From positions 32,001 through 96,000 of the IMG/VR virus record IMGVR_UViG_3300042882_000890: a stretch of 64,000 bases of DNA; one strand, written 5' to 3'. Below the pieces are notes generated by a model that was given only the letters and a program-made list of their open reading frames with translations, was not told the DNA's origin and ran no database searches. This stretch comes from a virus. Made by a program: the position numbers and the translations under genes. Positions 14,492-54,200 of this stretch are shown piece by piece (position 1 is the first letter of the stretch; every line of letters begins with the position of its first letter).

Positions 14492-15565
14492 ATGAAGTTA
14501 TTAAGAGACATTCCTACAAGACATTTTGTAGCGATTGACATTGAGACAGTGAGAATTGTCGAGAAGTACGAGGACTTATCCGATGAGTGGAAGTCAGCGT
14601 GGGAGTACAAGAACAAACAGTCCGGAGAGGTGCCTTTCTTTGAGGAGTTGTCAGACAGTTGGGAAAAAACAGCATCTTTGTATGCGGAGTTCAGTAAAGT
14701 TTGTGCTGTCAGCGTGACGTTCTTATCTAAAAGTGAAGACAAATTACTTTGTAAAGAGTTCTTCGGTACGGAAGAGAGTGTACTATTATATCAGTTAGGA
14801 GAGTTTTTAAACCAAATCTCTGGTAGTAGCAAAGATTTCAGATTGGTAGGACATGCCGCTAAGTACTTTGATTACCCTTTCTTATGTAAAAGGTATATCA
14901 TCAACAGTCTAGTAATACCGACATTGCTAGATACAGCCCACTTAAAACCTTGGGAAAGCAGAAACCTTTGTACCAATGCAGACATTTGGAAAATGGGTGG
15001 TACGGGTGCCGGTAGTTCTTTACAAGCGTTGTGTACTTCCTTGGCAATCCCAATCAGTAAGGTTGATTTAGTTGGAGATGAGGTTGGTAATGCGTATTAC
15101 AGAGGAGAGGTAGAGAGAATTGCTCACTATTGTTCACTTGACACTATTGCTACGTTCAACGTAATTCGTAGAATTAAAGCAGAGAGAATCTTTCAGTTTG
15201 ATGAAGTATCTTACCTAGACAGAAAAGAAAAGTCTAATGTAGCCAAACCGGTTGCTAAAAAAGAAGCTGTTGCTAAAAAGACCGCTACTAAAAAAGAGGT
15301 TGCTGAGAAAAGAGAGCCGGAAGATGTGTTGTTTGAGAAGTTACCTATACTTCACAGAATCTTAAATGCCACGGAGATACTTCCGGAAACAAGACAAGAG
15401 TTAGAGGCTTTGTTAAAGAAGAAAAAGATGACTAAGAAAGACCGAGTTATCGTGGAAGACATATTAGTTAATCTGTATGTTAACAGCGAGATGTTTAAGT
15501 CTGACAAGCCGGAAGTAAAAGAGAGTAAAAAAGCCGAGATTAAAGAAATTTTAGATAGTATATAA
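14492..15565 (+). CDS. DnaQ-like (DEDDy) 3'-5' exonuclease
   Basis: ExoI AIDIET, ExoII GH....FDYPFL, ExoIII YCSLD. Confidence 0.8.
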   Translation: MKLLRDIPTRHFVAIDIETVRIVEKYEDLSDEWKSAWEYKNKQSGEVPFFEELSDSWEKTASLYAEFSKVCAVSVTFLSKSEDKLLCKEFFGTEESVLLYQLGEFLNQISGSSKDFRLVGHAAKYFDYPFLCKRYIINSLVIPTLLDTAHLKPWESRNLCTNADIWKMGGTGAGSSLQALCTSLAIPISKVDLVGDEVGNAYYRGEVERIAHYCSLDTIATFNVIRRIKAERIFQFDEVSYLDRKEKSNVAKPVAKKEAVAKKTATKKEVAEKREPEDVLFEKLPILHRILNATEILPETRQELEALLKKKKMTKKDRVIVEDILVNLYVNSEMFKSDKPEVKESKKAEIKEILDSI

Positions 15566-16257
15566 TGACAAAAGAAAAAATGCTAGACTTACCAAAAGTC
15601 TATGAGAACGAGGGTGGTAATTATCCTCAACACGTAAACAAGCCGAAACTATCTTACTCAGCCTACAATTCTTTTTGTGAGGAGAGTTACAAAGGGGAGT
15701 TCTTTGCTAATTACTTCTTAGGTATTCGAGGCGAGGGTAATATCTTCACGGAGTATGGAAGTAAGTGTGGAGAGTATTTAGAGAAGCTAGAGAAGTCAGA
15801 TTTATCAGAGTTCGACATCTCAGTCCTAGAAAAGATTGAACGCCCTGAGAATGCTCGTTATGAGGTAGAAGTTGTAATCGACAGAGGTTCTTACGTTATC
15901 CAAGGGTTTATTGACCAAGAGTACAAAACCATAAATGGGTTACTAGTAATCAAGGATTTAAAAACCGGAGCGATTGACAAAAAAGCCAAAGACTATGCTG
16001 GGGGAGATTACCAACAGACAACTCTTTATGCTCACCAAAGAACATTAGAGGGGGAGAATGTAGTTTATTCAGGAGTTATGCTTTTAGACCGCAAAGGAAA
16101 TGGTGCCGAAAAACACCCACTAAGACTTACTGGAGAGATTGCAGACATTCCTACACCTTATTCTAAAGAGAGAGCAGAAGAGTTCTTACAGAAGTTTGAC
16201 AAGGTAGCAAAGCAGATTGAAGAGTACCACAAAGTTTACAAAAAATATTTTAAATAA
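15565..16257 (+). CDS. PD-(D/E)xK (RecB/Cas4-like) exonuclease
   Basis: LSYS, GFID, DLKTG, Q..LYA motifs. Confidence 0.8.
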   Translation: MTKEKMLDLPKVYENEGGNYPQHVNKPKLSYSAYNSFCEESYKGEFFANYFLGIRGEGNIFTEYGSKCGEYLEKLEKSDLSEFDISVLEKIERPENARYEVEVVIDRGSYVIQGFIDQEYKTINGLLVIKDLKTGAIDKKAKDYAGGDYQQTTLYAHQRTLEGENVVYSGVMLLDRKGNGAEKHPLRLTGEIADIPTPYSKERAEEFLQKFDKVAKQIEEYHKVYKKYFK

Positions 16258-16259
16258 AG

Positions 16260-16291
16260 TTTGCAGGATTAAAAAATAAGTTGTACCTTTG
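16260..16291 (+). promoter_or_regulatory. promoter driving the RNA-gene cluster
   Basis: TTTG-N20-TACCTTTG followed by about 700 nt without a plausible ORF. Confidence 0.8.
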
Positions 16292-16308
16292 CAAAACAAA
16301 ATTAGAAC

Positions 16309-16970
16309 ATAACCTGTACCCCCGAAAAACTCGTATTAATGATAAGCAGGTTATCCCGACATAAAGGGGTAGGAGAATTAGGGAAAATAAAGATTATGAA
16401 TGTGGTGCGACTTCTGCACAGATAGCTTAAAAGTCAGTAAACGAGCAGATAACTGAACTGCCACACAATCTTTATCTGTGTAAATATAGTAAATAGACGT
16501 AAGGCAGAGGGTCTTGAGTTAAATCGGACATTCCCCCCTACATAGGTAGCACGGAATTTATTTTTTAAGGTTAAACATTCAAACCTTTGTAATAGACTGT
16601 TAGGGGTCTTTAAGACGGAGTGCTACTTTACATAAAAGAAGTATTTTGCTTTACATAAAAAATGTTAATAGGTTAAACATTGAATACCTTTGTAAACAAA
16701 AAGCCTGCCTTAATGAGGTCTGCGTTAAAAGACTTGGCTATAGTAGTCTGTTTACATAAAGATACATGCAGTAATGTATGAACGTGAGTTGCCTTGAGAA
16801 AGCAATAAATATTAAGAGTATTAAATTGATATACTACTCACGTAATGAGCCTCGGCAAGTAGTTAATCAGGTGTGAGTTCAGTAATCCTCCCAATTACAC
16901 ATCGAAAGGAGGTAGTTAACTACGTGACCCTACTCTTATGTCGCAAGACTATGGATAAGAAAGAGGGTGC
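16309..16970 (+). ncRNA. cluster of unclassified structured RNAs
   Basis: non-coding; many perfect helices and pseudoknots separated by A/T spacers. Confidence 0.6.
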
Positions 16971-16992
16971 TAAAATTTTAAATAAATAAAAA

Positions 16993-17157
16993 ATGAAAAA
17001 AGTATTTTTGGCATTAGCTGTTGTTATGGCGATTGCAGTTACAAGTTGTAAACCTGCACCGGCAGAAGTTACAGAAACTCCTACGACAGAAGTTGATACA
17101 CCAAGTGTGGATACAACAACAGTTGATACTACCACTACTGTAGATACAGCTGAGTAG
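16993..17157 (+). CDS. small Thr-rich lipoprotein (54 aa, not in ORF track)
   Basis: MKKVFLALAVVMAIAVTS-C lipobox; VDTT repeats. Confidence 0.8.
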   Translation: MKKVFLALAVVMAIAVTSCKPAPAEVTETPTTEVDTPSVDTTTVDTTTTVDTAE

Positions 17158-17249
17158 TATTTAAGAGTCGAGGCTCAATCCTTTGATTTGAGCACGCTAC
17201 CTCGGACTTTGACAAGTGCCCCCACACGGGGGATTTTTTAAAGAATGTT

Positions 17250-17359
17250 TTGGGTATGTTGAATGGTAAACAAGCACTGTGACCAGTGTGGCATAGAGTT
17301 GAGAGTCCGGATGTCAAAACTCTTATAAGTCCTTGGGGGTTCGAGTCCCTCTACCTAAT
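17250..17359 (+). ncRNA. tRNA-like RNA lacking a canonical anticodon loop
   Basis: acceptor TTGGGTA/TACCTAA, D-loop AATGGTAAA, T-arm GGGGG-TTCGAGT-CCCTC. Confidence 0.65.
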
Positions 17360-17372
17360 CAAAATTATAGAT

Positions 17373-17738
17373 ATGGAAATAGTAGAAAGCGTAGTAAAAA
17401 GAGCTAATAGTTATTTAAGAGATACAGAAGACTGTATAGAATACCCCATACTAAATAAAGATGGCTATGGAGAAATGCAAACTTATTTATTAGGTAAGAA
17501 AAAGCATTATTTGATGCACAGAGTATCTTTCCAAATATTTAGCGGTATAGATATAAGTTCAGATAATATTATTTGTCATAAGTGTGATAACCCTAGTTGT
17601 ATAAACCCTAGACATTTAGTTTTAGGCACTCATTTAGAAAATGTAAAAGATAGGGTTATAAAAAACAGAAGTGCTAAAGGTAAAAATAATGGTAGGTATA
17701 AACATGGTACCTATGTAAAAAATAACCCAAATGGGTAA
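17373..17738 (+). CDS. free-standing HNH homing endonuclease
   Basis: HRVS...CHKCDNPSCINPRHL..GT..EN..D; start at ATG 17373. Confidence 0.88.
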   Translation: MEIVESVVKRANSYLRDTEDCIEYPILNKDGYGEMQTYLLGKKKHYLMHRVSFQIFSGIDISSDNIICHKCDNPSCINPRHLVLGTHLENVKDRVIKNRSAKGKNNGRYKHGTYVKNNPNG

Positions 17739-17740
17739 CA

Positions 17741-17806
17741 GAAAAGTAGTTTGTTGATATATTATTGAAGTTGACCAACACCCGAGTTCGACTCTCGGCA
17801 TCTCCA
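17741..17806 (+). ncRNA. ssrA: tmRNA acceptor piece (3' part of a permuted tmRNA gene)
   Basis: T-arm CCGAG-TTCGACT-CTCGG, acceptor strand CATCTCC, discriminator A; 5' boundary approximate. Confidence 0.8.
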
Positions 17807-17937
17807 CTAATCACTTGGTATTAAGGTGGTTACAGTTTCCTTGAACTATAAACAAGGTGGTGGAGTCACTGAGCAATCAGTTGACCTAAAGGGGCTTTTG
17901 GAAGATTGTGCCACTTTATAAAAAACAATCTATATAA

Positions 17938-18052
17938 GGGGATGACTGGTTTTGATTGGCAATAAGTAGGTAGTAAGGAGAATGTACTTTAAACACAAAC
18001 GGAGACGTTTACCAACTTGGTGGTGTTCAGCTTAGAGCTGTAGCATAACCAC
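17938..18052 (+). ncRNA. ssrA: tmRNA coding piece (5' part of a permuted tmRNA gene), tag GDVYQLGGVQLRAVA*
   Basis: GGGGATG-ACTGGTTTTGA 5' end pairs with 17799-17805 giving G3:U70; tag ORF 18001-18048; 3' boundary approximate. Confidence 0.8.
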
Positions 18053-18080
18053 GCCTGAGGAGAGCGAAATCTCCTCAAAT

Positions 18081-18154
18081 GCCCCCATAGCTCAGTTGGT
18101 CAGAGCAACTGACTCATAATCAGTAGGTCACAGGTTCAAGCCCTGTTGGGGGCA
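18081..18154 (+). tRNA. tRNA with CAT anticodon, probably tRNA-Ile2 (lysidine type); Met not excluded
   Basis: full cloverleaf GCCCCCA...TGGGGGC-A; ACTGA-CTCATAA-TCAGT anticodon arm; CCA not encoded. Confidence 0.92.
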
Positions 18155-18173
18155 CAAACTAAAAACAAATAAT

Positions 18174-31852: not shown

Positions 31853-32021
31853 CAAAATAAAATTAGAAAATATGGTATTAATATCTTTATTAGCTCTAGC
31901 GATGGTTGTTGAGGGCATCTGGTCTCCGAGATTTGATTATATCTCTAAAGAGAATATGTTATTGTTACACTACAATAAAAAGTGGTCAAGAAATTATTTA
32001 GTAATCTTTAAATTTTAAAAA

Positions 32022-37595: not shown

Positions 37596-40500
37596 TTAAA
37601 TATCTTCTTCGTCTAATACCCAAGCTACTGGAATAAGAGCTTCCTCTTTGTTAAAGTAGTCAAAGGCATCTCTCTGAGATTTTAAGTTCTCTGCATTCCA
37701 AACATCAAACATAGATTTAGCACCTGTTATATTTTTGATAAGATAAACTTGTTGTTTTGTCAAACCTTGATATCTACCTCTCTCAACTACGCTTGTGTCT
37801 AGTAAGTTCCCAATTTTAACTAAATTCTCAATTTTTTGTAAACCTACTACAGGCTCTTTGAAAGATGAATAAAATTCACCAAAAGAACCTAATTGAGAAG
37901 AAGCTACCTCGGTTGTTGTTCTTTCAAACAAGTATGCTGATAGTTGTGCTCCCCACAAATCTTCTTCGTCATCTGCAAAACTAGATAAGAATATGGTTAG
38001 CAAGAACAAACCTGAAAGGAATAACAACTCTTTACTGGCTCTTTCAAGATTTTTTCTAGTTGTTTCATCACCGTTAATATATAAGTCTTTAAACTCATTC
38101 ATTATACCTTTTAGCTTACCTTTTTTGTAACCCATATTTATTGCATCAACAAAGTAGTTAGCTGCTGTAACGTATGTCCCTTCTTCTACTTTACCTGTCT
38201 GGAAGTTTATGTGTCTTCTTTTAAAACGGTTAGCGGCAGATATTGCTAACCAACCTTTATGTGTCATTACAAATCTACCTAAAACGTCTCTCTGTAAAGT
38301 TGTTCTTTCTTCATTTGTGATTTGACCGTCAATTCTTTCGACTAGTTTCTTAGTCTTAGATATAACGCCTAACTCAATATTCCGGAAATCTTTTCTGAAC
38401 TCTTCGTCATTAGCTCTATTCATATCCTTAGCCAAAGATTCAAACTCGTAAGTCATAGTTGGATAAGGTTTGCCATTTTTATCTTCTGTAAGAATGTAAT
38501 TGTATAAAGCTTTGCTTTCTAAGGCTTTCCAGGCTGCGGTTACATCTTTGATATTAGCTCTTGAACCTAAAGCGTTATTAAACATTACTTTAAACTGCTC
38601 AAAATCTACTATCTTGCCTTCATAAACTCTGTTACCATATAGCTGCGATAGCATAGCTTTTGATAGTGGTACGAAGTTACCAGCTGTATGTAAAATATAC
38701 ATCGACTTACTAAGTGCTCTAGGAGCCTTATTATACATAGAGTCTTGGAATCTACGGTCTAAATCAAATATTCCGAAGTACTCCCCCATCAATGATAATT
38801 TAGCTCTGGAATTTAACTCCAAACTTTCTTTCATTGCCGGTGTAGATAGTTTGTAAAACTCTTTTCTGGCTAAGTTGTAAGAACCAGAATCTACATATTG
38901 CTCTAGTAATCTCTCTATAATTAAGGAAGCTTCTGCTGTCATCCAAGAAGTTATAGGAACAATAAAGTTTCTACCAAGAGAGTTATTTCTAAGCCAGTTG
39001 TGTAGTTTGTTAATAACTTTTGTAACATCTACTTGTCCTAAAACAGGTAAGTTTACTCTCCAGTTTCTTCTTTCTTTTACTCCAAATAAGTTGTAATCCA
39101 TATAAGACTTAAACATCTTATAGGTGTTGGTAGCCTCAGCTGATTTACCCCCTGGGTAAGCTCTATTTAAAGCTTTGTCATTAAGGGTTGCGAACTCAGA
39201 ATACCTATCTTTTTTAGATTTGTATAACTCTGCTTGTTGAGCCATCAAAGCTGAAGTATAAAATAAATCCTCTGACACAAAATCCTTTTCAGAGAGTCTG
39301 TTCAAGAAGTACTTAGGTATTACTCTAAAACCTTCATTCTTTATAAAAGCTTCTCCCTTGTTTGCCTCATCTCCAAAAGCTTGTTCATCTATTCTAAATC
39401 TCAAGAAATCCTGCCACATATCTTTTGTAGAACCTTTTGGGTCTTTCAAGAAATCCATAGTTTTATTAAAACTTGTTTTTGATATTTGTGGTGCCAAATA
39501 CAAGTTGTGTAATCCTAGTTCTCCATAAGAACGTAAAGTATCTTTTTGGAAGTTTATGTACTCTTTGTATAACTCAAATAACTCTTTATTAGAGTTTGCT
39601 TGCATATTGCCATCAGCATCTAATACCGGGTTGTTTTCAGAGTCTCTTTTAGGGTTAAATAGCTGAACGAATCTACTGTTTGAATACTGTGATAATTTAG
39701 GTTGTCTTGAACCACCCTCAAAATCTTCTCTGTAATTACTGTTCTTAAATTTAATCTCCCCCATTTCGTAATAAGAGAAGTTATTGCTAACTTTTACATC
39801 ATCTCTATTATTCAAAGAATTAACTAATCCAAAAACATTACCGTTGCCCTCTTTTAGGTTCGTGTAAAACTCAGACAATCCTACTGGAGCAAAAGCTTTG
39901 TAGTACATTGCTATTTTTGACTCTGCGTATTTTAAAACAATGTCTTCTACCTCTTCTTTTAAGATATCTTCTCTACCTACTATGTTCTCTATTAACTTTT
40001 TGCTTGCGGCAGTTATAGGTCTATTTTTGGTAAAGTTTTCTAGTGCATCTCTTAATCTTTCTACTCTTCTTCTATTGGTAAGAGTCATGTTTTTTAATGC
40101 AAAATCTATTTTGTCAGAAGTCTCTGTTATACCTTTGTCTTTTAAAGAATCGTAGTAAGCTTGGTTTGGGGTTACTTCTGAAACTTTTTCAGCTTCTTCA
40201 CCCATTTCACTTATAGTACTCTTTTGAAAAGTTTTGTATAATTCAGAATACAACTCATCAATCCTTTCTGATAAATCTAACACATTTTTTCTAATATCAT
40301 CCGACATTTCGTCTGCCAAAATATTAGTATAGTTTCTAGAGTCCTGGAACTTTTTTAGTATAGCTTTTCTTTTATCTAAGCTTTCTTTGTATTCGTTTAT
40401 TTTTAGTATTGTTAACTCATCTGCTTCCGGGTCTTGTTCATACAAATCAAGCTCTGTCATCAATGTTTCAGAAGAATTAAAGCTGTTCCAAAAATCATTT

Positions 40501-43325
40501 GAGAAACCTACAGTGGAGTTCAACAAGAAGAACTCAACAGCTGCCTCTCTACCTTCTTCCGTTTCTATTCTACTAAGCTCTTCTAAGAACTTCGGTGCTA
40601 ATTTATCTACATCAATTTTTTGACCAGACAGCTCAGCCTCTCTTTTCTTTTGTGCTAATACATCAAGGTCTAGTTTAGTTATTTCAAAAGCAGTTCTTGA
40701 ATCTGGGTCGTTTGGATTAGCTAATTCATAGTAAGTACCGTTTACTTCTAGTGTTTCATTAGAAGGAAAATTTACTTTTTTAATCCCACTTCTTAGAGTA
40801 CCGTCATTTTCAAAAAAAGATTTTAGTTGCTTTCTTTTTAGATTAAAACCATCTAATTCGTGTTTATCTTGTAATGTGTATCTTGGTAATCCTTTTTCTG
40901 TTTTAACCCTAGCCATAAGCTCCCCTAAATCCATAGATAAAAGGCTTAGCTCTGTTTTTGTTGTTTCAGAAATACCTAGTCTAGTATAACGGTCTTCTCT
41001 TTCTTGGTAGTACTCATCTGTAAAGCTTCTCTCTACGATAGAGTTTACAGCTTTGCTTACTTCTTGTTTGTATAAAAACTCATTGCCACCATCTGCCGCA
41101 TCTTTTATTTTAGGTAAACTATTTGTATTAAGCCCTTCAATTATTTCTGCATCAGTCATATTGTGACCGCTATATTTTTTGAAGTTTTCTACTTTTATAT
41201 TAAGTATATCTTTCTCAAATTTAGACCAGTCGTACATACTTACAATATAGCCATCTTCATCAAAAAACTTGGTTAAGTCTTTTTCAGTAAAACCTAACTC
41301 TCTAACCTTCATTTGAAAGGCTTTAGTTCTGTTTATGTATGTTAATTCTGCATCTCTGTTCATATCAGAAATTACAGTACTCAACATATTTAGTATGGGG
41401 TCATTTGCGTGTGAAAGCTGTCCAAATAGAGCGTAAACCATTTGAGTATCTCTCATAGCTACATCTATAGCTTTCTCTAACTCAGGTCTTAAATCATCAC
41501 TTAGGTTGTGTCTTACCATTAACCTGTTTACGATTTCATCTATAATCTTAGTTTCCGTAAGTTGTACTTTTGCTGTAACTGCTGATATAGAAGTCTCTAC
41601 ACTTTCTAAATCTGGAATCAAAGTTTTTAAGCTTGGGTCATTTTGTACTATTACCCTAAGCTTGCTCAGTAATGGGCTAATTTCATCCTTTAAACTACGA
41701 AGTACAATGCCCTCTTCATTAGACAAAGTTTTACCTTTTTTATTTGCGTTGTCAATAGCAAACCCTACGTATCTAGCTTGGCTTTTTGCTAGAGAAATTA
41801 GGTCTAAAGCGGAACTCTTTGTAAGCTCTTTGTCCAGGATATCGTTAAGTTTTTGAATTGTGGCTCTAGAACCTCTACCTGCTTTTCTTAGATTTTTTTC
41901 TTGCTCAATCAAAGACATAACCAATTGTTTTGAAACAGCCGATTTAGCATCTAAAGCTGGGTCTCCGCTTGGATTCAATTGATACATTCTAAACTTTTTC
42001 TCTTTAGCTTTTTCTAATTTTAGATACTGGTTTACGTTTTTGGTTATAATTAAATCTTCTACTTTATCAGTAAGCTTTGCTATATCGTCATAGAAGCTTT
42101 GTTCAGAAATTATACTATCAAAAAAGTTTTTAAATAGCTCAAAAATCCTAGCTAAGATATTAGTTTGTATTTCTGTTTTACCTTCTGTACTAAATCTGTT
42201 TTGTAAGGCTTTGGCTAGTTCTTTTCCTAATATCTCTCTTCTTAATAGGTTCTCTATTTGCTCAGATGACATAGCAGGATTCTCAGAAATATAAACCTCT
42301 CTGTAATTCTGTGATAACTCTTGGTAAGTTTGTGTTTTGTGTATGTTTCTAAGAATATTTTCAATATCAGCATCATCCCAAGTTTCAACTATAAAGTGAG
42401 ATGTCTCTTCTAGTAAACCGTCTGTGGATATCTCTCCATCTCTGTACGCTATCACTTGTTGTGATATGTCTAATAGCGTTTTAGCATCCGGAGAAATCCC
42501 ATTTCTTATTTCGTAGTTTTTTACGTATTCGTCTATAGACATTACACTAACGCCCATTGCGTTAAGTAAGTCCATCAATCTCATTTTTAATGATTCTTCA
42601 TTAGTATCTATGGTTTCCCCACTTAGCCCCGAAGGTAAAACTTCTCTAACTAACTTATTCAAAAATAAAGACTTTCCTTGAGCTTCCCCAAACTTTGACT
42701 TTAAATCTTCCATAGAAGCTTTTGCAATCTCTTCAGTTGTAGCTGTCTTACCGTTAGACTCAATTTTGTTTTTACCGTCTTTTAGCTCTATTCTACCGTC
42801 TTTGAATATTTTTGTGTTGCTTTTTCCTAAACGAATTATAGCTTCATCTTTTATGATTTGCTCATTAGCTAATTGTAAGATTTGGTTGGTTCCCTCTGCC
42901 TTATGGTAATTCTTTCCTGATTCTATTATTTTTTCATCAGACAACATATCCTCTTTGATAAGGCTGTTTATAAAACCTTCGTATGTTTCTGTGTTTGTGT
43001 TTGAAGATATTTTTTGTAATACTGTAAATGTGTCATTAACCGGTATTCCCACTTCAATCTCCCCACCTGTAGAGTCTTTCAATGCCTCTTTGAAAGAGTT
43101 GAATGTGTTTCCTTTATCTGACTTAAAAGATAAGTTTGGCTCCACTTCCTGATTAGATAAGTTTATCTTATCTGAATAGACATTTTTAAAAGTCTCTAGG
43201 GCTTCTTCCAGGGAGCTGGTATGAGGCAGTCTGGCAATTTGTTTAAACAATCTACTTTCTGTGCCATTAGGCGTAAGTACATTATCTATTCCCCCGGTTT
43301 TATTAAATTTTATTGTACAAGTCAT
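37596..43325 (-). CDS. giant probable virion/ejection protein (1909 aa)
   Basis: size and context; degenerate zincin-like LEETSH; hydrophobic C-terminal segment. Confidence 0.65.
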   Translation of the reverse strand: MTCTIKFNKTGGIDNVLTPNGTESRLFKQIARLPHTSSLEEALETFKNVYSDKINLSNQEVEPNLSFKSDKGNTFNSFKEALKDSTGGEIEVGIPVNDTFTVLQKISSNTNTETYEGFINSLIKEDMLSDEKIIESGKNYHKAEGTNQILQLANEQIIKDEAIIRLGKSNTKIFKDGRIELKDGKNKIESNGKTATTEEIAKASMEDLKSKFGEAQGKSLFLNKLVREVLPSGLSGETIDTNEESLKMRLMDLLNAMGVSVMSIDEYVKNYEIRNGISPDAKTLLDISQQVIAYRDGEISTDGLLEETSHFIVETWDDADIENILRNIHKTQTYQELSQNYREVYISENPAMSSEQIENLLRREILGKELAKALQNRFSTEGKTEIQTNILARIFELFKNFFDSIISEQSFYDDIAKLTDKVEDLIITKNVNQYLKLEKAKEKKFRMYQLNPSGDPALDAKSAVSKQLVMSLIEQEKNLRKAGRGSRATIQKLNDILDKELTKSSALDLISLAKSQARYVGFAIDNANKKGKTLSNEEGIVLRSLKDEISPLLSKLRVIVQNDPSLKTLIPDLESVETSISAVTAKVQLTETKIIDEIVNRLMVRHNLSDDLRPELEKAIDVAMRDTQMVYALFGQLSHANDPILNMLSTVISDMNRDAELTYINRTKAFQMKVRELGFTEKDLTKFFDEDGYIVSMYDWSKFEKDILNIKVENFKKYSGHNMTDAEIIEGLNTNSLPKIKDAADGGNEFLYKQEVSKAVNSIVERSFTDEYYQEREDRYTRLGISETTKTELSLLSMDLGELMARVKTEKGLPRYTLQDKHELDGFNLKRKQLKSFFENDGTLRSGIKKVNFPSNETLEVNGTYYELANPNDPDSRTAFEITKLDLDVLAQKKREAELSGQKIDVDKLAPKFLEELSRIETEEGREAAVEFFLLNSTVGFSNDFWNSFNSSETLMTELDLYEQDPEADELTILKINEYKESLDKRKAILKKFQDSRNYTNILADEMSDDIRKNVLDLSERIDELYSELYKTFQKSTISEMGEEAEKVSEVTPNQAYYDSLKDKGITETSDKIDFALKNMTLTNRRRVERLRDALENFTKNRPITAASKKLIENIVGREDILKEEVEDIVLKYAESKIAMYYKAFAPVGLSEFYTNLKEGNGNVFGLVNSLNNRDDVKVSNNFSYYEMGEIKFKNSNYREDFEGGSRQPKLSQYSNSRFVQLFNPKRDSENNPVLDADGNMQANSNKELFELYKEYINFQKDTLRSYGELGLHNLYLAPQISKTSFNKTMDFLKDPKGSTKDMWQDFLRFRIDEQAFGDEANKGEAFIKNEGFRVIPKYFLNRLSEKDFVSEDLFYTSALMAQQAELYKSKKDRYSEFATLNDKALNRAYPGGKSAEATNTYKMFKSYMDYNLFGVKERRNWRVNLPVLGQVDVTKVINKLHNWLRNNSLGRNFIVPITSWMTAEASLIIERLLEQYVDSGSYNLARKEFYKLSTPAMKESLELNSRAKLSLMGEYFGIFDLDRRFQDSMYNKAPRALSKSMYILHTAGNFVPLSKAMLSQLYGNRVYEGKIVDFEQFKVMFNNALGSRANIKDVTAAWKALESKALYNYILTEDKNGKPYPTMTYEFESLAKDMNRANDEEFRKDFRNIELGVISKTKKLVERIDGQITNEERTTLQRDVLGRFVMTHKGWLAISAANRFKRRHINFQTGKVEEGTYVTAANYFVDAINMGYKKGKLKGIMNEFKDLYINGDETTRKNLERASKELLFLSGLFLLTIFLSSFADDEEDLWGAQLSAYLFERTTTEVASSQLGSFGEFYSSFKEPVVGLQKIENLVKIGNLLDTSVVERGRYQGLTKQQVYLIKNITGAKSMFDVWNAENLKSQRDAFDYFNKEEALIPVAWVLDEEDI

Positions 43326-43344
43326 CTTTTTTATTTGTTTTGTG

Positions 43345-43376
43345 CAAAATTAATATTTTTTTTTGAATTACGCAAA
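43345..43376 (-). promoter_or_regulatory. Bacteroidota sigma70-type promoter
   Basis: TTTG-N20-TAATTTTG on the - strand. Confidence 0.75.
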
Positions 43377-43383
43377 TAGATTA

Positions 43384-43411
43384 AAAAAGTTAGGCTACTT
43401 TTCAGTAGCCT
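43384..43411 (-). terminator. intrinsic terminator after the 2584-aa gene
   Basis: AGGCTACT-GAAA-AGTAGCCT followed by a T run on the - strand. Confidence 0.65.
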
Positions 43412-43417
43412 TTCTTT

Positions 43418-46400
43418 TTATTGACATCCGAAGTATTCTTCGTTTATGTCATCCAACTCTTTCTTAGAGTAATAATTTTTAGAAGTTTTAAAAGCTTCCG
43501 GTGCATTTGCCAAGTACATGTATTCTTGAAAACTTATGTCTGAGAAAGGTGCTTCCACATTTACTTTCTTATATCCTGTTCTCTTATCTGTATCTAACTT
43601 ACCGTAGAATTTTATATTCTCGAACTCAAATATCTTTTCAAAAACTCCTATTGGTGTCTTTACAAAAGTCTCACTTTCATTTTTTACAGCTAAAACTCCG
43701 TCTTTTAAGTAGGTGTATTGCCCTGATACTTTTTTGACTCTATCTGGGTTATTAACCGCTTTTTGTCTTTGTTCTAATTGAGTATTTATATCTTCTGGCT
43801 TCTCTTCTAACAAAGGCATCTCCAGGTTCAAACTGTCTGATATGATGTTGTATTCTGCCAGCTCTTGTTTGAATCTTTCTGGTACACTATCAACAGCTTC
43901 AGACTTAGACATTTCATCGCTGTTTACCAATTCTATACCTTTACCAGTCACTTTAAAGTACGGGTTAGATGTTGTCAGTATCCACTTGTTGAAATCTTTC
44001 AAGAACTCATCTGTCAAGTACTCCTCTGAATTAGTTATCTTATTGAAATTATCAACTTTAACAGTAGGTCTTTGTGTAGACATCGGGAAATCAAAAAACT
44101 TTTTGTAAAGGAATATTTTCTCCAAGTTATCAACATCAACTTCGTAATCAGAAACTTCTAGTAAACTTGCATTTCTCTCTACATATAGTTTTAAAGCTTC
44201 AAGTGTATCTATACCTTCCGGTAGTAAATTTTTGTATTCAAAAAAGCTTTCGTACAAGCTGTCCAAAGACTGTTCTTTTACCTTTCTATAGATACCATCA
44301 TCCTTCTTAATTAATCCGAACTCAGAAAACATCTCGTATTCAGATAAAGGCTCTTCAACAACTACATCATTTTCACTATTAGTTTTTATAACTTCTGTTT
44401 TAGCTTCTTTATCACCGAGTATCTTGTAATATCTTTCAGTGAACTCAATCATGTTTTCTGGGTTACTAGGGTCTTCTATAACATCCTCCATAGAATCTAA
44501 AAATCCTAGTACCTCGTCTCTTGATAACTCTAAAGCTAGGGTAGGGAAGTTTCTTAAATCAATACCATTTACCTGAACATTTTTCTTAATCTTATTAAGG
44601 ACTTTTGATACATTTTTTAAATCACTATTGAATATCTCTTTGTCAATACCTTGTCTCAAAAACGCAATATCTTCAGTAATAGAAATGTCTAAATCATCAG
44701 TCATTGTATTTAATAGCATACCTTCGACATCTTCTGTTTTGTCCACCAACTCCCCATCCACTACAGTTTTTATTGGAGCCTTTTTGTGGTCTCTAGCAAT
44801 AGAATCTACTGTTTCTTTGAAGTTAGGGTCTGTATAGTATTTGTTAGAGAAAGTTGTTGGTAAAGCTTCGTCAATTTCTGACTCTTCTAACCCGGCTACA
44901 CTTTCTACTAAGTCTTTTTCTACAATACTAGGATTAGTAACCTCTTGCTTTCCGAACTGGTTTACTTCTCTACCTTGTGGTATAATAAAGTTTTCATCGT
45001 AATCTAATTCAAATGGCTCACTGTTTCTTAGAGATAGTAAGCTTTCTTTTATTTGCTTTTGTAACTTAGGTGAACTAAGTATAGTGTTTATTTCAAAAAT
45101 GTTGTACAGTTTACTTCTTTGTAAAGATAGCTTATCAAACAGTACAATACCATTCTTCATCAAAGCTTTCTCCATTTTTTCAACTAACTCTTTTGAACTT
45201 TTCACTTTTAAAGCCATTGCTGCGTTCTTTGCAGCTTTTAATCCTTCTAAACCTAAAGGTTTAACTTTAGAGTTTGAAAAATCCATCAGAGTTTTTATAG
45301 AGGGCTCTCCGTTAGAGTCCGTATCTTTTAAAGAAACTGGTCTAGCTTTTCTTACCATCTCAAAATCGGAAGTTTTTTCAAATCCTAAAGAAGTATAAAA
45401 AGACTCAAGTCTTTCAGGCTTAGTGGTGGTGTCTCTTGGGCTTACCATCAAGTAAACATCTTTTCCTTGTGCATCGGTTCCATTTAAGAACAACTCCGCA
45501 GCTTTCCTTGCATTACCTTGACCTCTTTCAGTAGACTCTATAAGTTCCCACTCAACGCCCTCAAGTTTCTCTCCGGTTATCGGATTAACTCTATCCTTTG
45601 CAAATATTTTAGTACCGTTTAACTCTAAGGAGGGCTGTCTGGTTACAGTAGGTGTGGTTGGTGTATTTAATACTGACATCCTTTTACCTTCTGGAGAATT
45701 TACGATACTACTATATGTGCTCTTATACTCCTGAGGTAAATCAGAGTTATTTATTATATCTGAAATCTCTTCTTGGCTCAGTTTGGTATAATTCTCGTTT
45801 AAGCTGTATACACTATCATATCTATTCTCTCTATTTCTATAGTTATTTAAGTCTAGATATAGTTGTTTTAGTTTTTCGTTTTTAGGAACTGGTATTATAG
45901 ATTTGTAACCTTTTGATGAATTGCTATCATAATTTTCTTGAAAAGGTTTTTTTACAGTTGCCCCCTCAGATACTTGCGTATCATTAGGCTTGTGTTCTTT
46001 AATACTTTGAGCTCTAGTTCTGTTTTGCCATTCTGCTACAACCATCTCATATCCAAAATCTGCTGCTACTTTTGTAACATAAGCAACTTGGGTATTTGGG
46101 TCAAAGGCTTTTCCTGGATACTCTTTAGAATGGAGTTCTCTTGCTTTTTCAATAAGGTTCAAGCTATCTGTATTAAAGTCATAAACTTTATCCATAGGTA
46201 TTTTTACCATGTATTTAGACTCTCCTCTAATCATGGTTTCACTGTCCTCTGGTCTAGAATAGTACATAGCAAGTCCTCCTACTTTTGCTAAAGCTTGAGC
46301 TTCTTCTCTAGAAGTTGCTGTAGTGTCTCCAGAAGTTCTTTTTATCACCTCATAGCCACTTGTACCTACATGGTAGAAAACAAAATTTCCTTGTCCATCT

Positions 46401-49400
46401 TCTGTCAAGTTTGCATAATTAGAAGAGTTCTCAGAAGTTATGTTTTCTGTTTTTGGCATAGACACCCACTCTGGTAAAAGTCCCACTTTTTGTTCTGCAA
46501 AAGACATCTCTTCATAAACTTCCTCAGTTAACTTTTTGGCTTCTTCTAGTTTACCTTCTTGTCTTAAAACTCTAGCTTTATCTCTTTTTTTGAAAGCTTC
46601 GTCATTTACCCCTGAGAAATTTACCCATGAATTTTGACCTCTTGTTTCTGTAGTCATAGCTCTTCTAGCTAGTGGAGAATACATTCTTGCATGAATGTTC
46701 CAAGCATTCTCTTCTCCAATTGCTCCAAAACCATTCCCAAACTTAGCGTGTCCAAAAAAGTCGTGCACAAATCGGAATACATCATTGGCTAATAAAGGTA
46801 ATCCATTAACATCTTTGTACTTAGTTTCTTGTAACAAAAGATTATCCTCTCTTTGTTTATCTGTTATTGCCTCATCACCAAAACCGGATTCTGTAGAAAA
46901 GATTTTCATACGTTTGTTGTCACGTAAGTCTGAAATCATATCAGCAGAACTGTCATAAGGTTCTAAATTGTTTATTTCTACTTTGTAACCTTTGCTTAGT
47001 ATTTTTTCGTATTGCTCTAATGTCTCTTCTACCATTGCATTATATGCGGCTTTAGTTTGAGGGTCATTAGGTGTAGCTTGCATTTTATCAAACTCTTGAG
47101 CTATTCTTTTACTGTTTTCTTTATCCAATTTTGTTATTTTTTGGATAGGTGCAGTACTCATTTTTTTATCAGCCATGTATTCATCTGCTATGATAGATGC
47201 TTCTTCTAAAGGCTCATTAAATAATTTATTCCCTGAAACAATAGAAAAGTTTATGTTTGGGTCTGTATCTCCAAACTTGGCTTTTGCTTCTTGGGTTTTT
47301 TCGTAAACTTTTTTGAAGTCTTCAAAAGATAAATCCTTTCTTCTAGCATAGGCTCTTATCATATACATTCCTCCAAAAGTGCCGGCATCTAAATGTACAG
47401 GTTTACCCTCTTTTATACCCCAATTTGCTATATTTGTTAAATCTCCATAGATTATATCATAATCTAGAAAATCTTGTAATCCATAGCTTTTAAGTACCTC
47501 TATTAAGTCTGGATTTCTAGTATCAAAATCAGCTTGCCCATAAGGTGTCAGCTCTTGTATCATAACATCTGCATCTTCAGTATCGTACTGCTTTCCAGTA
47601 TTGATATCGTAAACAGGTACTTTTGCTTTATTTTCGAGCACTTCTAGTTTTTCAACCACTACATAGTTCAATCCTGTTTCATAAACTTGTGGAAGTAACC
47701 CCTTAGATATTAAATCAGAGTCTCCCTCTTGCATATTTTGTGCAAGACCCCTAGCTGTATTAGCCACTTTTAGAACTTTACCTTCTCCTAAGTCAAATAC
47801 GACTCTATCAGAGCCTGAAGATATTTTAGTTAAGTTTGGTATATCAAATCTTTCTCTAGCTACTTGGTTAGTATCATATTTATATCTTAGGTAAGCGTTA
47901 TTTTCACCCATATTTCTTGTTATCCTATTCCCGGATAACATCTCTGTAGCCGAAGCTGTTCCGAAATCAGCCAATGTCATATTAGCTACTTCGTCTGCTG
48001 TGTAACTAGTCAATCCTAAGATATCTTTGATAGACTCCCAAACACTTTTTAACCAATCTGCTATACTGTCTTCTTTTTTAGAATTAACTAATTTAGCACC
48101 TTGGTCTCCAATCACTTGTGCTAGTACCTCATTGTTAAATTTTTCTGAGCCCTCTTCTAAATCAGGTTGAGTTTCTTTTACAATATCAATATACTGTTGA
48201 GCCTCTTCTTTATTTTTACCAATAAGAGATAGTCCGGCTTGGTATAAGTCAGTTCTATTTTCTTTTAGCCAATCTAGATGTAAATGCCCAAATTCGTGAA
48301 TAGGGGTATCTAATCGCATAGCATCTGTGTTTAAATACACATCTCCTTTGTAGGTAAATCCAGCTGTGGTTAACTGTACACCATTGTAACTTAGCCTTTC
48401 AAATTCTTCTCTTTCTAATATCTGACTTTCAATGTACTCATCAGATAACAAGTAAAGATAATCCTCTTCTGGGATATTGTTTTCTATTTGGTAAGGTCTT
48501 AATACTTCCTCTGCTATACTTTTTCTTGTATTGTTATTGGTTAGTAACTCCTCTATAAAATTAACATAGTCTTGGTCTGTATAAGTAGAATCTCCATTAT
48601 CATCTCTGATTTCAGAATTTTCCCAAAGACTCTGAGCTATTTGGTTTATAGACGGGGCAGTTTTACTTATTAAGCTCATTCTTGCTTTTACTTCCCCCTT
48701 ACTATTTCTGTATAGCTTTTTTATAGATTCTTCAGATACTCTTCCTCCGGATAAAAAGTAATTGGCTACTTCTACCTCTGGGGTATAAGCCTCTATTTTT
48801 AGAGCCTCTTTTATTACTTTTAATCTTGTATCCCTTCTTGCTAACTGTTTTGAAAATTGTATTTGCTCATCTATTGTTACATCATTTTCATCAAATACTA
48901 CATAGTTAAACCCTCTTGCTGTGTCTGAAGTTGCTCCACGAGCAATACTTTCAGCAGGGTATTTTATTCCGTCAATACCTGACTCTAATAAAAATAATGA
49001 AGCTTCTTTTTGCCCTTCAAAATATCCACTTAAATATCTGTATAAATTTGCTCCATCTAAAACTTTGTCGCTAACAGATGCAGGTATAATACCCTCGTTA
49101 ACCCACATATCTAAAACTTCTGCTATTTGTTTATTTTTTTCAGACAGTGTTTTAATTACCCCTTTACTTACAGGCTTGTCCCACTCTAACCAATTATACT
49201 CTCCTACTTCTTTTCCTTTTTGTAAAGATACTTTGTATATATTTTTTGAAGGTTTATTAAAAGTTATGTTATCAAAGACAGCCTTTTCTTCATTTACTTT
49301 TTCTAAAGCTTCTTTATAATAGTTGTCTTTAGTATCTAAATACTCTTTTTCTAATAATTTTATTTGGTTTTTGTAAAAATTGTTTCCTATTTCTTTAAAT

Positions 49401-51172: not shown

Positions 51173-51192
51173 TGTTTTGATTTATTTTTATG

Positions 51193-51224
51193 CAAAATTA
51201 AGAATTTATTTTATAAAAAACAAA
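51193..51224 (-). promoter_or_regulatory. Bacteroidota sigma70-type promoter
   Basis: TTTG-N20-TAATTTTG on the - strand. Confidence 0.75.
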
Positions 51225-51238
51225 TTTGTTAACTTTTT

Positions 51239-54200
51239 TTATTCGCAAGGTTTATTTTTTTCGCTGTCTACATCTTTTTGAGATTGGTTGTTTAGCTCAT
51301 ACAGTCTGTCCAATGCTTCTGTAACTCTATCGCTTTGTACAAATTGAGCTTCCTGTAAAGATATCTTCTTTCTTAAAAATATTTTAGTAGCTATCTCTAG
51401 AGCTTTCTCTTCACTAACATCCCCTTCTCTCTCAGCTTCTGTATACCAATCTTTTACTCCCTCTTTTAATTCATCTAACTCTATGATAGGTTTTGGTGAA
51501 GAGAACATGTTGTTAGCCATATCTAAGCCTATACTAGCCTCATTGGCTAAGTCAGTAGTTGTGTGCTCAGGTAACATCCAATCTTTAACACTACTTACGT
51601 TTGTAACACTGGCTAAGTCATCTATAGCTTTTAGTAAATCTTTTGTAGGGAATCCTTCAGAATCTAATATGTTTTGGTTACTTTCGTCCATATAAAACAA
51701 ATTGTAAGCTGCTGGAGAAAAACCGTTGTCTGCTAATAGCTGATTAAGTTTTATAGCTGCTTCAGCTCTATTTTTAGAGTCTGTGAATATGTCAGTAACT
51801 TGGTCAGATAAGTTAGCTTCGGATTCTTTTAAAGCTACTGGGAAAGCTATCAAGTACTTGCCTTGTTTAACTACAACCACTGGTTGGTTTGTTCTTCCTA
51901 GTAATCCTTTTATAAAATCTTCTCTTACCCCTTTTGTATTGTTTTTTAGAACTAGTTTACCGTCTTCAATATAACCGTAGTCTATAACTTGCTCCGGTAT
52001 AATGTCAAACATTTTTATAGCTCCATTTTCAAAAGTAAAATTAGGAGAGCCTAAAAATATATGTTTTATGTAACTTGTTTTTGATAGTGAAGCTACACCC
52101 ATAATACCAGACTCCATTCTTGATTTGAATATCTCAAAAGCCTCTCTTCTCAAGTCTAAGTATCCTGGGATACCTGCTATATCGTAAGCTGCTTTTAAAT
52201 CCCCAAGTTTTCTACCGTCTGTATCAAGTACGTTTACTTTTATGTTTTCAAAAAGTTCTTTTTCTAGTTCCTCAACATTCCTTCCTTCGTCTAAGCCCTC
52301 TTCGTATTTTTGGATAAGTTTTAGATTATACTCATCATTCATATCCAGGCTGAAAGTAACTTCTGCTGATTCCCCCGGCTCCATATTATAGATTTCTCTA
52401 GGAGAATATTCAGATGCGTTTCTGTAGTCTGTTTTTAGCTTCTCTCCGGTCTCCAAATCATAAACAGGAGAATACCCCCCATTTCTATTTAGAGTGCCTT
52501 CTACATGCTTCATATTAGCTTCAGCCATAACTTTAGGGAAGTCTTCGCTTTTCAAAGATATAGCACCACTTCTTTCTACTGTTAAATTAACTTTGCTTCC
52601 ATCTGCAAGTGTAACTATAAAGTTAGCTCCAGGTAAAGAGTTTTCCTCTACTTCTTCTGGTGTAATTACTTTAGCTGAACCTTTTACTTCTACATTTTTA
52701 CCTTTTTCCCATTTAGTTTGTACATAACCTATATCACCGGTTATTCCCATTCTTTCTAAAAGTCCAGGAAGAGTTAAATGTGATATTTGTACAGAGTTTC
52801 CTTTCTTTTTAACAAATACATTTTCGTATACTTGTATGTACTGTTCGTTTCTAATACCGCTGGCTCCGTCTACTTCTAGAGGCTCGTTATCAGATAAGTT
52901 TATTAAGTCTGAGTCTGTAAGTTTTTCTCTGATTATCGGCTCTACTGTTTGTCTAACTGCTACAGCTTGTGTTATCATTTGTTGTAGAGATACTCCGTTT
53001 TCGTTTTGGTATCCTTCTATCAACTGCCAGTTAGCCATCTTTTGGTTTAGCTCTTGTAATCTAGTTATTTCAGCCTTTGTTAAAGACGGTCTTGTTGTAG
53101 GAGAAAATCTCTTAGAGTCGTAAGGGTTTTTAAAAGCCACTAACTCCGTATCAATACGTGGGTCATCAATAGCTTTAGCCGCTAAGTCATAAAACTCTTC
53201 TATCTCGGCTTCAGTAGGAACTAAGTCTAAGATATTTTCACCAAAATTCTCTAGTAAGTATGGACTGTTTTTTACCATTTCAACTATAGAGTCTATCAGT
53301 GACTTTTTCTCTTGTACCGGCTCTTGCGTTTTGTCTTGATATTTTTTATCAATAGCATCTAACTTAGCTTGTTTTTCTTTTTCAAGCTTTTTGATTTCCT
53401 TGCTGTTGTCTGCTTTTTGTTGTGTGTTACCTATTTTTGATAACTCTTCATTTAGTAAAGCTAGAGTACTATTAACATGTGCGTAAAACTCATTTGAGTC
53501 AGTATTTTTACCGGCAGGTTTTGTAGGTAAATTCATTGTGTTATTAAAAGATTCTAAATCTTCTTTAGAATCACTTAAAAAACCTATACCATCTTTTAGT
53601 TTACCATTACCGTTATCTTCTCTACTTTCGATACCCCCTATCCCTTCGTTAAGTATTTTAGAAAGTTTTTCAAATAGTTGAAAGCCATAACTATTATTTA
53701 TCTGCTCTTCTGAACCTTTGTTTATCCATCCAGCTTCTACCCCGATACCAAAAACAGCATACCAATTACCTGCTTTTACACTTTTCTTACCTGCTTGACC
53801 AGTACTAATGTAAAAAGGTATATTGTATTTACCTATTTTCATCATTACCATTACTCTATCTGAGTAATCAACTACATTGTAATCTTTACCATTGATATTT
53901 ATTGAAGAGAGTAAATTATTATCTTTTAACCAATTTAACTTTTCTTCTAATGTGTTTAGTTTATTTAACTCTGCTACTATGTCTGCTACTGGAGTAGATA
54001 TTATATTAACACCTTCTTGACCTTTTAACAACGGTGTTATTAGCTTGTCATATCTATCATAGATTTCTTCAAACTTAGCTATATCTTCTGGATTAGTTAA
54101 TTTGTTTTTGTCTACTTTACCATCTGTCAGGGCATTTTTTGCCTCCGGTATAGCTGCAAGTAATTCTTTTTGTTCTTGCTCTCTTAACTTAGCTATTTGT

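Follow-up and report, generated by a model that had tools for sequence, protein, structure and literature searches.

The region at 16670-16973 on the + strand of the window (the whole 64,000-nucleotide stretch analysed here, positions 32,001 to 96,000 of IMG/VR record IMGVR_UViG_3300042882_000890) is, with little room for doubt, a complete member of a phage RNA family that is uncatalogued and is in print only as an unexplained abundant transcript of phage phi14:2. Members share a near-invariant core, consisting of P0, helices P1-P4, a pseudoknot of the P4 loop with the junction AAUGAGUUCUCAGCAA, P6 and the tail GCUAA, and carry four hypervariable arms that are exchanged between phages by recombination. 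The RNA lies in a probable stable-RNA transcription unit (16258-16992) of a Bacteroidota-infecting lake phage, and this stretch is a composite row of RNA pieces rather than a single giant RNA. The best explanation overall, which we hold to be reasonably probable, is a promoter followed by leader modules, a partial duplicate and a family RNA acting in trans. RNAs that are both large and structured but have no known role are rare and have repeatedly been a route to new biology.

Family membership and distribution

A profile built from 62 members, from which the window and the members sharing arms with it had been left out, matched the window with nhmmer at 16669-16975 over profile positions 2-327 of 327 (E = 1.1e-43, 142 bits). 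The anchors of the family follow one another in the order GGTTAAACATTGAA, ATAAAGATAC, the AGTAAT loop, the CTTGAGAAA loop, AATGAGTTCTCAGCAAGTAG, ACGTGACCCTACTCTT and AGAGGGTGCTAA, and the window reproduces six of them exactly; in place of the fifth it has AATGAGCCTCGGCAAGTAG, one base shorter and with three substitutions. P1, P2, P3, P4, P5 and P6 all form in the window, P2 and P3 through compensatory changes from the consensus.

The exact 19-mer ATGAGTTCTCAGCAAGTAG, the 16-mer ACGTGACCCTACTCTT and a 5′ motif pattern independent of both words were found in 104, 107 and 102 IMG/VR contigs, respectively, and the family totals 188 unique sequences from contigs of 4 to 373 kb. It is common among phages with Bacteroidota-type hosts, both marine and freshwater. 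Since most of these sequences were retrieved with exact conserved words, the invariance of the core is partly built in, and many of the covarying cells stem from a few clades.

The initial annotation had recognised no family in the RNA region, and Rfam 15 agrees with it: cmscan of the whole window at the gathering score returned only tRNA-Met, the + strand at 16300-16990 gave no match at E<=10, the homologous RNA of 10 relatives gave none at the gathering score, and 5 further family loci gave none at E<=5. A TeloSII hit on the minus strand at permissive thresholds (E = 0.11) was discarded as a chance match. Scanning of 185,579 GTDB species genomes with the 19-mer revealed no cellular homologue at that stringency and one chance match (L202); two contigs of 'Clostridium sp.' metagenome-assembled genomes (L203, L204) in the same scan hold the 3′ part of the RNA. 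A literature search on the conserved words gave no match, and the fold, spread and arm swapping of the family are not described in the literature searched.

BLASTN of window positions 16200-17400 against GenBank phages likewise returned no match, the arms and divergent J3/5 of the window copy masking its kinship, and a query with a consensus-like member found phi14:2 as the sole match among 50,697 GenBank phage records. The phi14:2 copy (NC_021806, 2912-3362) starts 8 nt past the g004 stop codon, and the 5′ motif begins ~8-10 nt past the stop codon of the upstream gene in phi14:2, L026 and L028. Short ORFs formerly annotated at this copy were dropped from RefSeq in 2020. Like the window RNA, the g004-g005 lncRNA of phi14:2 has every anchor block, aligns over its full length (as L165) in alignment A2, the set of 71 sequences on which the pair counts are based, adopts the same fold, is non-coding and shares its strand with the genes around it. 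It differs in being ~450 nt long with a large P2 insertion and other arms and in following directly after a gene, whereas the window copy, at ~305 nt, has a divergent J3/5 and is preceded by a promoter, by leader modules and by an orphan 5′ domain.

Fold and variable arms of the family RNA

From 5′ to 3′, the RNA is composed of P0, P1 with var1, AUAAAGAUA, P2, P3 (enclosing P4 and var2), AAAUGAGUUCUCAGCAA, P5 with var3, GUGA, P6 with var4, and GCUAA (Table 1). In A2, 94.3% of cells form standard pairs, whereas shuffling the partners gives 84.7% and sliding them 38-47%, and both sides change in 31 of the 52 pairs. Covariation among homologues, which the initial annotation had named as a check, was obtained for 16670-16973, with most signal in P1-P4 and a score of 0.240 (against 0.081), a value reached by none of 500 shuffles. 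G-U cells outnumber A-C cells by 121 to 56, an excess suggesting that the + strand is the RNA strand. All of the helices named in the initial annotation are present in the sequence at their positions, and its module D, the outer helix of its module E and its module F correspond to P3, P5 and P6, respectively.

Table 1. Positions in the window of the features of the RNA locus.
Feature	Position	Strand	Remarks
Upstream flanking gene	15565-16257		230 aa
Bacteroidota-type promoter, TTTG-N20-TACCTTTG	16260-16291	+	-33 TTTG 16260-16263; -7 TACCTTTG 16284-16291
Module A	16309-16384	+	Two hairpins joined by loop-loop pairing
Module A, hairpin S1	ATAACCTG 16309-16316 with CAGGTTAT 16347-16354	+	
Module A, loop-loop pairing	TACCCC 16317-16322 with GGGGTA 16366-16371	+	
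Module A, hairpin S3	CCC 16355-16357 with GGG 16381-16383	+	
Module B	16385-16487	+	Lineage-specific sequence; proposed helices present, unsupported
Module C	16488-16567	+	Two predicted hairpins, second ~16530-16556, then T-rich run 16557-16567
Orphan copy of family 5′ domain	16568-16667	+	P0 motif, P1, var1 arm of L020/L201 type
Family RNA, complete member (phi14:2 g004-g005 lncRNA family)	16670-16973	+	~305 nt
P0	16670-16689	+	AGGT/ACCT closing near-invariant loop TAAACATTGAAT (RNA form UAAACAUUGAA)
P1	TGTAAACA 16691-16698 with TGTTTACA 16749-16756	+	Closes var1 16699-16748; pairs change on both sides
Junction TAAAGATA and hairpin P2	16757-16780	+	CATGC, loop AGTAAT, GTATG
P3	16782-16788 with 16837-16843	+	Encloses P4 and var2; 16782-16843
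P4	TTGC 16789-16792, loop CTTGAGAAA 16793-16801, GCAA 16802-16805	+	RNA loop CUUGAGAAA
var2	16806-16836	+	Within P3
J3/5 AATGAGCCTCGGCAA	16844-16858	+	Divergent version of most conserved family block AATGAGTTCTCAGCAA
P5	GTAGTTAA 16859-16866 with TTAACTAC 16916-16923	+	Closes var3; module E outer helix
var3 crossed pairings	GTGTGA 16871-16876/TTACAC 16895-16900 crossing CCTCC 16887-16891/GGAGG 16908-16912	+	
P6	ACCCT 16927-16931 with AGGGT 16964-16968; TCTTAT 16934-16939 with ATAAGA 16955-16960	+	Module F
var4 (GCAA-capped hairpin) and tail GCTAA	within 16927-16973	+	z = -2.2 for 16927-16973 including P6
Downstream flanking lipoprotein-like ORF	16993-17157		54 aa

The P0 helix is weakly supported and not proven, since its pairs hardly vary. 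Members that lose the TTTG nevertheless retain P1 pairing in the form GATAGTG/CACTATC. The occurrence of TACCTTTG before P1 was considered as a -7 promoter box and rejected, its last bases lying within the covarying P1 and being replaced in other members (e.g. by CCTGATAGTG) with the pairing kept; no -33 element was found at the right distance from it, nor any promoter directly ahead of the family RNA. All five pairs of P2 change on both sides, 99-100% of cells pair, and the window differs from the consensus CTATC/GGTAG in three pairs. In P3, the helix ACGTGAGT/ACTCACGT of module D, all 7 pairs covary, with the main type in 57-64 cells and the alternative in 9-12, and 6 of them alternate between two clades; the pair counts in P4 are CG 48, GC 11 and AU 6. 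Both sides change in 5 of the 8 pairs of P5; the whole P5 arm is absent from at least about ten members, in which the junction reads GCTTGACCC, and is therefore dispensable. The crossed pairing inside var3 recurs in five other members with hardly any variation there.

The consensus pseudoknot, TGAGAA with TTCTCA (UGAGAA/UUCUCA in RNA), is 93-100% paired in the 188 sequences, and the changes seen in it are one double change (L220, GAAAA/TTTTC) and G-U intermediates. In the window, CTCGG at 16851-16855 can pair with TTGAG of the P4 loop at 16794-16798 in a shifted register, giving 5 pairs (3 Watson-Crick and 2 G-U) versus 6 in the consensus; the pseudoknot is weakly supported in the window's own divergent form. 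In A2, P6a and the pseudoknot show almost no variation, in part because retrieval used those very words; compensatory pathways are seen in both among members retrieved solely by the 5′ motif, and one P6a pair is C-G in 146, U-G in 7 and U-A in 3 of the 188 sequences. Minimum free energy is unremarkable over the whole region (z = -1.3 on the + strand, -2.6 on the - strand) and ranges from z = -1.9 to -2.5 in the 3′ modules.

A protein-coding test of the family RNA revealed no conserved open frame: conservation runs in blocks, neither indels nor arm lengths keep to multiples of three, and the ATG within the most conserved block is followed in the window copy by a stop after 5 codons.

Among 67 members, each of the arms var1-4 occurs in 51-57 types, and 68 member pairs have exactly one arm in common while the other three differ. 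The var1 of the window is common only to L121, its var2 is unique, its var3 is common to L158, L168, L172, L189 and L242, and its var4 to L215 and L201. The arms are only mildly structured on average (mean z -0.9 to -1.3). Hairpins resembling the tRNA T-arm were considered as a family trait and dropped, as 4 of 109 members have them in their arms versus 0.3 expected, which is too few. An invariant core with arms swapped piecemeal is unusual for an RNA and calls for explanation.

Near-invariant junctions and a pseudoknot would also be in keeping with the conserved core being a ribozyme, for example a self-processing element releasing the RNA from polycistronic transcripts, and it fits such a role that the RNA often follows a gene or tRNA-like element without a promoter of its own and yields a stable product. 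We nevertheless regard this as improbable: known ribozyme models give no match at E<=10, nothing points to a cleavage site, and where tRNA-like genes flank the RNA, as in some loci, RNase P or RNase Z could trim it.

Promoter, leader modules and orphan 5′ domain

The source record is 106.6 kb long, and in protein comparisons its closest cultured relatives are phages of Cellulophaga and Flavobacterium. The surroundings of the locus in the window constitute a replication and nucleotide-metabolism block with an exonuclease, a replication-initiation-like ORF, a ribonucleotide reductase (RNR), a helicase and a polymerase. A layout with -33 and -7 elements is established for Bacteroidota promoters. 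Sites of the form TTTG-N18-23-TAnnTTTG number 20 in the window versus ~3 expected from shuffles and are mostly co-oriented with genes, and the longest + strand ORF in 16258-16992, which holds no credible ORF, is 38 aa; both results bear out the earlier description of a consensus promoter followed by ~670 non-coding nucleotides. The 54-nt extended promoter block has 3 further copies elsewhere in the same genome and also precedes RNA slots in relatives.

Related loci were obtained via the flanking 230-aa and 270-aa proteins. The nearest relative has just three blocks in common with the stretch in the window, and each module has its own distribution across the relatives. Module A is an 84% identical block in L005/L020, L030, L021 and L272, and the two pairings first proposed for it are invariant across 4 related lineages (L020, L030, L021, L272). 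Hairpin S3 covaries, being CCC/GGG in the window and GCTCTTAT/ATAAGAGC in L020, which places GGGGTA in a hairpin loop and makes the TACCCC-GGGGTA pairing a loop-loop kiss of two hairpins. A hairpin of ~45 nt is inserted in the S1 loop in L021 and L272. Module A is not significant alone by minimum free energy (z = -0.8), and exact-word scans for it gave nothing beyond the same few lineages and two chance matches in GC-rich coding DNA (L266, L271). What comes after module A in relatives is another module, or else a different conserved RNA occupies the slot after the same promoter. An HDV-like or theta ribozyme was considered for module A on account of its similar P1-P2-P1′-P2′ strand order and rejected, given 13 nt between candidate P3 and P1′, the ~45-nt insertion at that place in L021 and L272, the covarying S3 that makes the second pairing a loop-loop kiss, and the lack of an Rfam HDV-type match.

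Support for the modules of the initial annotation is uneven, extending to A and to D, E and F as parts of the family fold, but not to B and C, for which no homologue was found in 80 related loci and whose folds are no better than shuffled sequence (z = -0.4 for B on the + strand, -0.7 for C). With its T-rich run at 16557-16567 directly after it, the second hairpin of module C may be a leaky terminator. RNA-library contigs overlie modules B and C, and one of them (contig X15 record 1) spans 16327-16652 across module C.

The segment at 16568-16667 matches family profile positions 2-91 (E = 3.3e-5) and is 75% identical to L005; it is a left-over partial duplicate that repeats the 5′ domain of the RNA after it. 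It ends at one copy of the direct repeat TTTACATAAA, copies of which begin at 16627, 16650 and 16751. One RNA-library contig runs from 16649 straight into 16751, omitting 101 nt, and represents a natural variant that lacks the 101-nt repeat unit. Full tandem copies of the family RNA occur in L146 and L191.

Four lake RNA libraries contain contigs of 150-335 nt that overlie 16312-16937, including 16327-16652 and 16561-16856; being assembled sequences, these contigs indicate presence only, without strand, ends or level, and the libraries can contain DNA. The flanking ORFs are not covered by such contigs, an observation that carries no evidential weight.

These contigs bear on the reading, offered as one of two in the initial annotation, that all 670 nt constitute one giant RNA folded as a single unit in the GOLLD or ROOL manner. 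They bridge modules A-B-C to the next unit (16327-16652) and that unit to the family RNA (16561-16856), and a single promoter is recognisable; yet almost all of ~190 sequences have the family RNA by itself, with no A-C, it starts right past a gene stop in phi14:2, L026 and L028, modules B and C lack homologues, and module A precedes a different module in relatives. No supported long-range pairing connects the parts, the whole-region z is -1.3, and the GOLLD and ROOL models gave no match. We consider the giant RNA very unlikely. The other reading was a string of RNAs, with decoy, antitoxin-mimic or ribozyme activity as candidate roles; the string comes closer than one molecule, except that D, E and F are not separate units and instead form one ~305-nt RNA with 16670-16784. 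For annotation, the lesson is that 'empty' stretches in such phages are rows of RNA genes, and anchors for finding them are now available.

Expression, genomic context and proposed mode of action

The lncRNA of the phi14:2 g004-g005 junction is transcribed above most protein genes, from a region transcribed rightward, and is present from the first time point without declining (Drobysheva et al., 10.1101/2020.03.07.982082). That report gives its abundance and timing only and does not treat its structure, family or function (10.1101/2020.03.07.982082). Among family members, that of phi14:2 is the sole one with published RNA-seq. With the RNA among the most abundant transcripts of a cultured host system, phi14:2 on Cellulophaga baltica, its function is directly testable.

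No conserved neighbour gene was found, the flanking proteins forming tiny clusters, and the hypothesis of a conserved partner gene was abandoned on this ground. The genes downstream differ in nearly every phage, with 17 of 99 on the other strand and a median gap of 133 nt. Of the 102 loci with enough downstream DNA, just 24 have a tRNA or tmRNA no further than 1.5 kb away, a proportion at which a tRNA/tmRNA link of the family was also dropped, and the window genome has one copy of the RNA. The lack of a conserved neighbour, the 24 of 102 tRNA/tmRNA-adjacent loci and the single copy in the window genome argue for action in trans.

In the explanation that we favour, the primary transcript would begin near 16298 and would then be trimmed to stable pieces, of which the family RNA would be an abundant, long-lived, trans-acting one. 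Its invariant junctions and pseudoknot may bind a conserved host or phage factor, the RNA serving as a decoy, sponge or RNP scaffold, and the arms may be tolerated or specificity-giving decorations. This mode of action is tentative and somewhat doubtful, resting on analogy because no partner, target or activity was found. The analogy is with 6S RNA and with Y RNA (Ro/Rsr), which would be alike in being abundant, stable, structured RNAs that bind a conserved protein in trans; 6S has a long bulged helix and Y RNA an end-to-end stem, whereas the family RNA has neither and no Rfam match. A TROVE/Ro protein (PF05731) was absent from the window record, three relatives and phi14:2, while positive controls matched.

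Small stable RNAs of unknown function (species 1 and 2, rnaC, rnaD) are also encoded in the tRNA cluster of phage T4. They lie beside tRNA-type genes and are probably co-transcribed with them and trimmed from longer transcripts; they have no sequence relation to the family RNA, which, unlike them, is tRNA/tmRNA-adjacent in only about a quarter of loci.

A bolder proposal, that the core docks on a conserved Bacteroidota host machine or defence protein while the arms are swappable specificity or evasion cassettes under diversifying selection, is in our estimate unlikely. If true, it would parallel, in RNA, the design of phage receptor-binding proteins, in which the scaffold is constant and the tip variable.

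The genomic context and the phi14:2 expression also bear on a possible cis-acting leader, that is, a riboswitch, attenuator or processive antiterminator controlling downstream genes. In the window and its close relatives the RNA ends 19 nt before the small lipoprotein ORF, and it occurs early in operons; however, the downstream genes vary in identity, strand and distance as described above, the 3′ end has no terminator or sequestering helix, and the high and lasting abundance in phi14:2 suits a product better than a leader. Direct evidence stands against this reading, as against the giant RNA, and we give it equally little credence.

A self-assembling multimeric RNA particle like those of ROOL, GOLLD and OLE, decorated on the outside by the arms, would be consistent with the constant core and variable peripheral arms of an abundant, phage-borne RNA. 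The large phage RNAs studied so far are reported to have formed RNA-only complexes (10.1101/2024.12.08.627333). At ~300 nt the family RNA is much smaller and has no conserved self-complementary loops, and a particle is accordingly rated very improbable. GOLLD (RF01998), ROOL (RF03087), OLE and raiA are likewise large conserved structured ncRNAs, often phage-borne and sometimes beside tRNA genes; the family RNA has no sequence or model similarity to them, is half their size or less, and differs in its hypervariable, swapped arms.

Least probable of all is an origin or primer transcript in the manner of ColE1 RNA II or the T4 origin transcripts, whose fold would control the start of DNA replication: the window locus does lie inside a replication and nucleotide-metabolism block with one copy per genome, but this context is not conserved, some phages have tandem copies, the GC-skew turn is near 37 kb, away from the RNA locus, and the phi14:2 copy is located in an early left-end operon.

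Conserved RNAs in the leader slot of relatives

The slot that modules A, B and C fill in the window, between the promoter and the member of the uncatalogued phage RNA family (the family RNA), is occupied in five related phage loci by a further uncatalogued conserved RNA (see table), which is located after the same promoter or after the flanking 270-aa protein gene, starts at its 5' end with ACACATAGAAAGACAAACA, contains the hairpin AACACT/AGTGTT and ends at its 3' side with CCAATCTTGATGGATGTGT. An additional conserved module, which includes TTGGTCTCTG and GGGAACGCTTGTGAGTGGCAG, comes after module A in three other loci, in place of B and C of the window.

The RNA island downstream of the family RNA

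Immediately 3' of the family RNA in the window lies an ORF of 54 aa that carries a lipoprotein signal and a tail rich in Thr, Asp and Val, and L020, L030 and L272 are arranged alike. The ORF is followed by a conserved ~70-nt element, retained in relatives, the end of which is a terminator-like hairpin (CCCCCACACGGGGG) with a T-run. The tRNA-like genes of the window and of three other loci combine a normal T arm with very long inserts; ARAGORN made no call on any of these four, and the Rfam tRNA model gave 41 bits for the copy in L028. By eye, a candidate UCA anticodon loop was spotted in the L006 gene. The HNH endonuclease ORF, situated between RNA genes of the window, looks like a free-standing homing endonuclease within the RNA island.

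The permuted (two-piece) tmRNA-like gene of the window was scored by Rfam at 42.1 bits, below the cut-off of 47, and runs into tRNA-Met. In the relatives L020, L021 and L030 the permuted tmRNA model reaches 57-65 bits, while L024, L026, L033 and L034 harbor a one-piece standard tmRNA (75-86 bits) instead of the permuted form.

Features of the window and of related phage loci
Feature	Location	Details
Further uncatalogued conserved RNA	L005:2930-3100; L006:4735-4985; L007:4735-4950; L033:3270-3440; L034:3275-3435	
Additional conserved module	L020:3395-3485; L021:3485-3575; L272	L272: on the reverse strand, directly behind module A
Lipoprotein-signal ORF	window 16993-17157	54 aa; lipobox VTSC
~70-nt element	window 17165-17240; L006:5983-6050	
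tRNA-like genes	window 17250-17359; L006:6725-6835; L024:4263-4400; L035:3313-3436	
HNH endonuclease ORF	window 17373-17738	121 aa; PF13392, phrog_1872
Permuted tmRNA-like gene	window 17716-18155	ARAGORN, tag GDVYQLGGVQLRAVA; Rfam RF04321
tRNA-Met	window 18081-18154	76 bits
Head-to-tail family RNA copies	L146:8281-9093; L191:2834-3646	two full copies per contig
Members without P5/var3	L281, L284, L286, L288, L296, L299, L300, L302, L306, L319	
Members with T-arm-like hairpins	L100, L167, L204, L241	in arms
Giant ORFs	window 37596-57136	- strand; 1909, 2584, 1965 aa

Variants of the family RNA

Besides tandem copies, the family RNA includes a subclass entirely devoid of helix P5 and its hypervariable arm var3, with the junction GAGTTCTCAGCTTGACCCTAC. 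Hairpins resembling the tRNA T arm, with a 5-bp stem and a loop of TTCGAGT, TTTGAAC, TTTGAAT or TGTAATT, are present in the arms of 4 of the 109 members, versus 0.3 expected.

Giant ORFs elsewhere in the window

The first of three consecutive giant ORFs matches the virion structural protein phrog_37651, and among cultured phages the 2584-aa protein is best matched by structural proteins of phi4:1 and phi17:2, two Cellulophaga phages of 145 kb.
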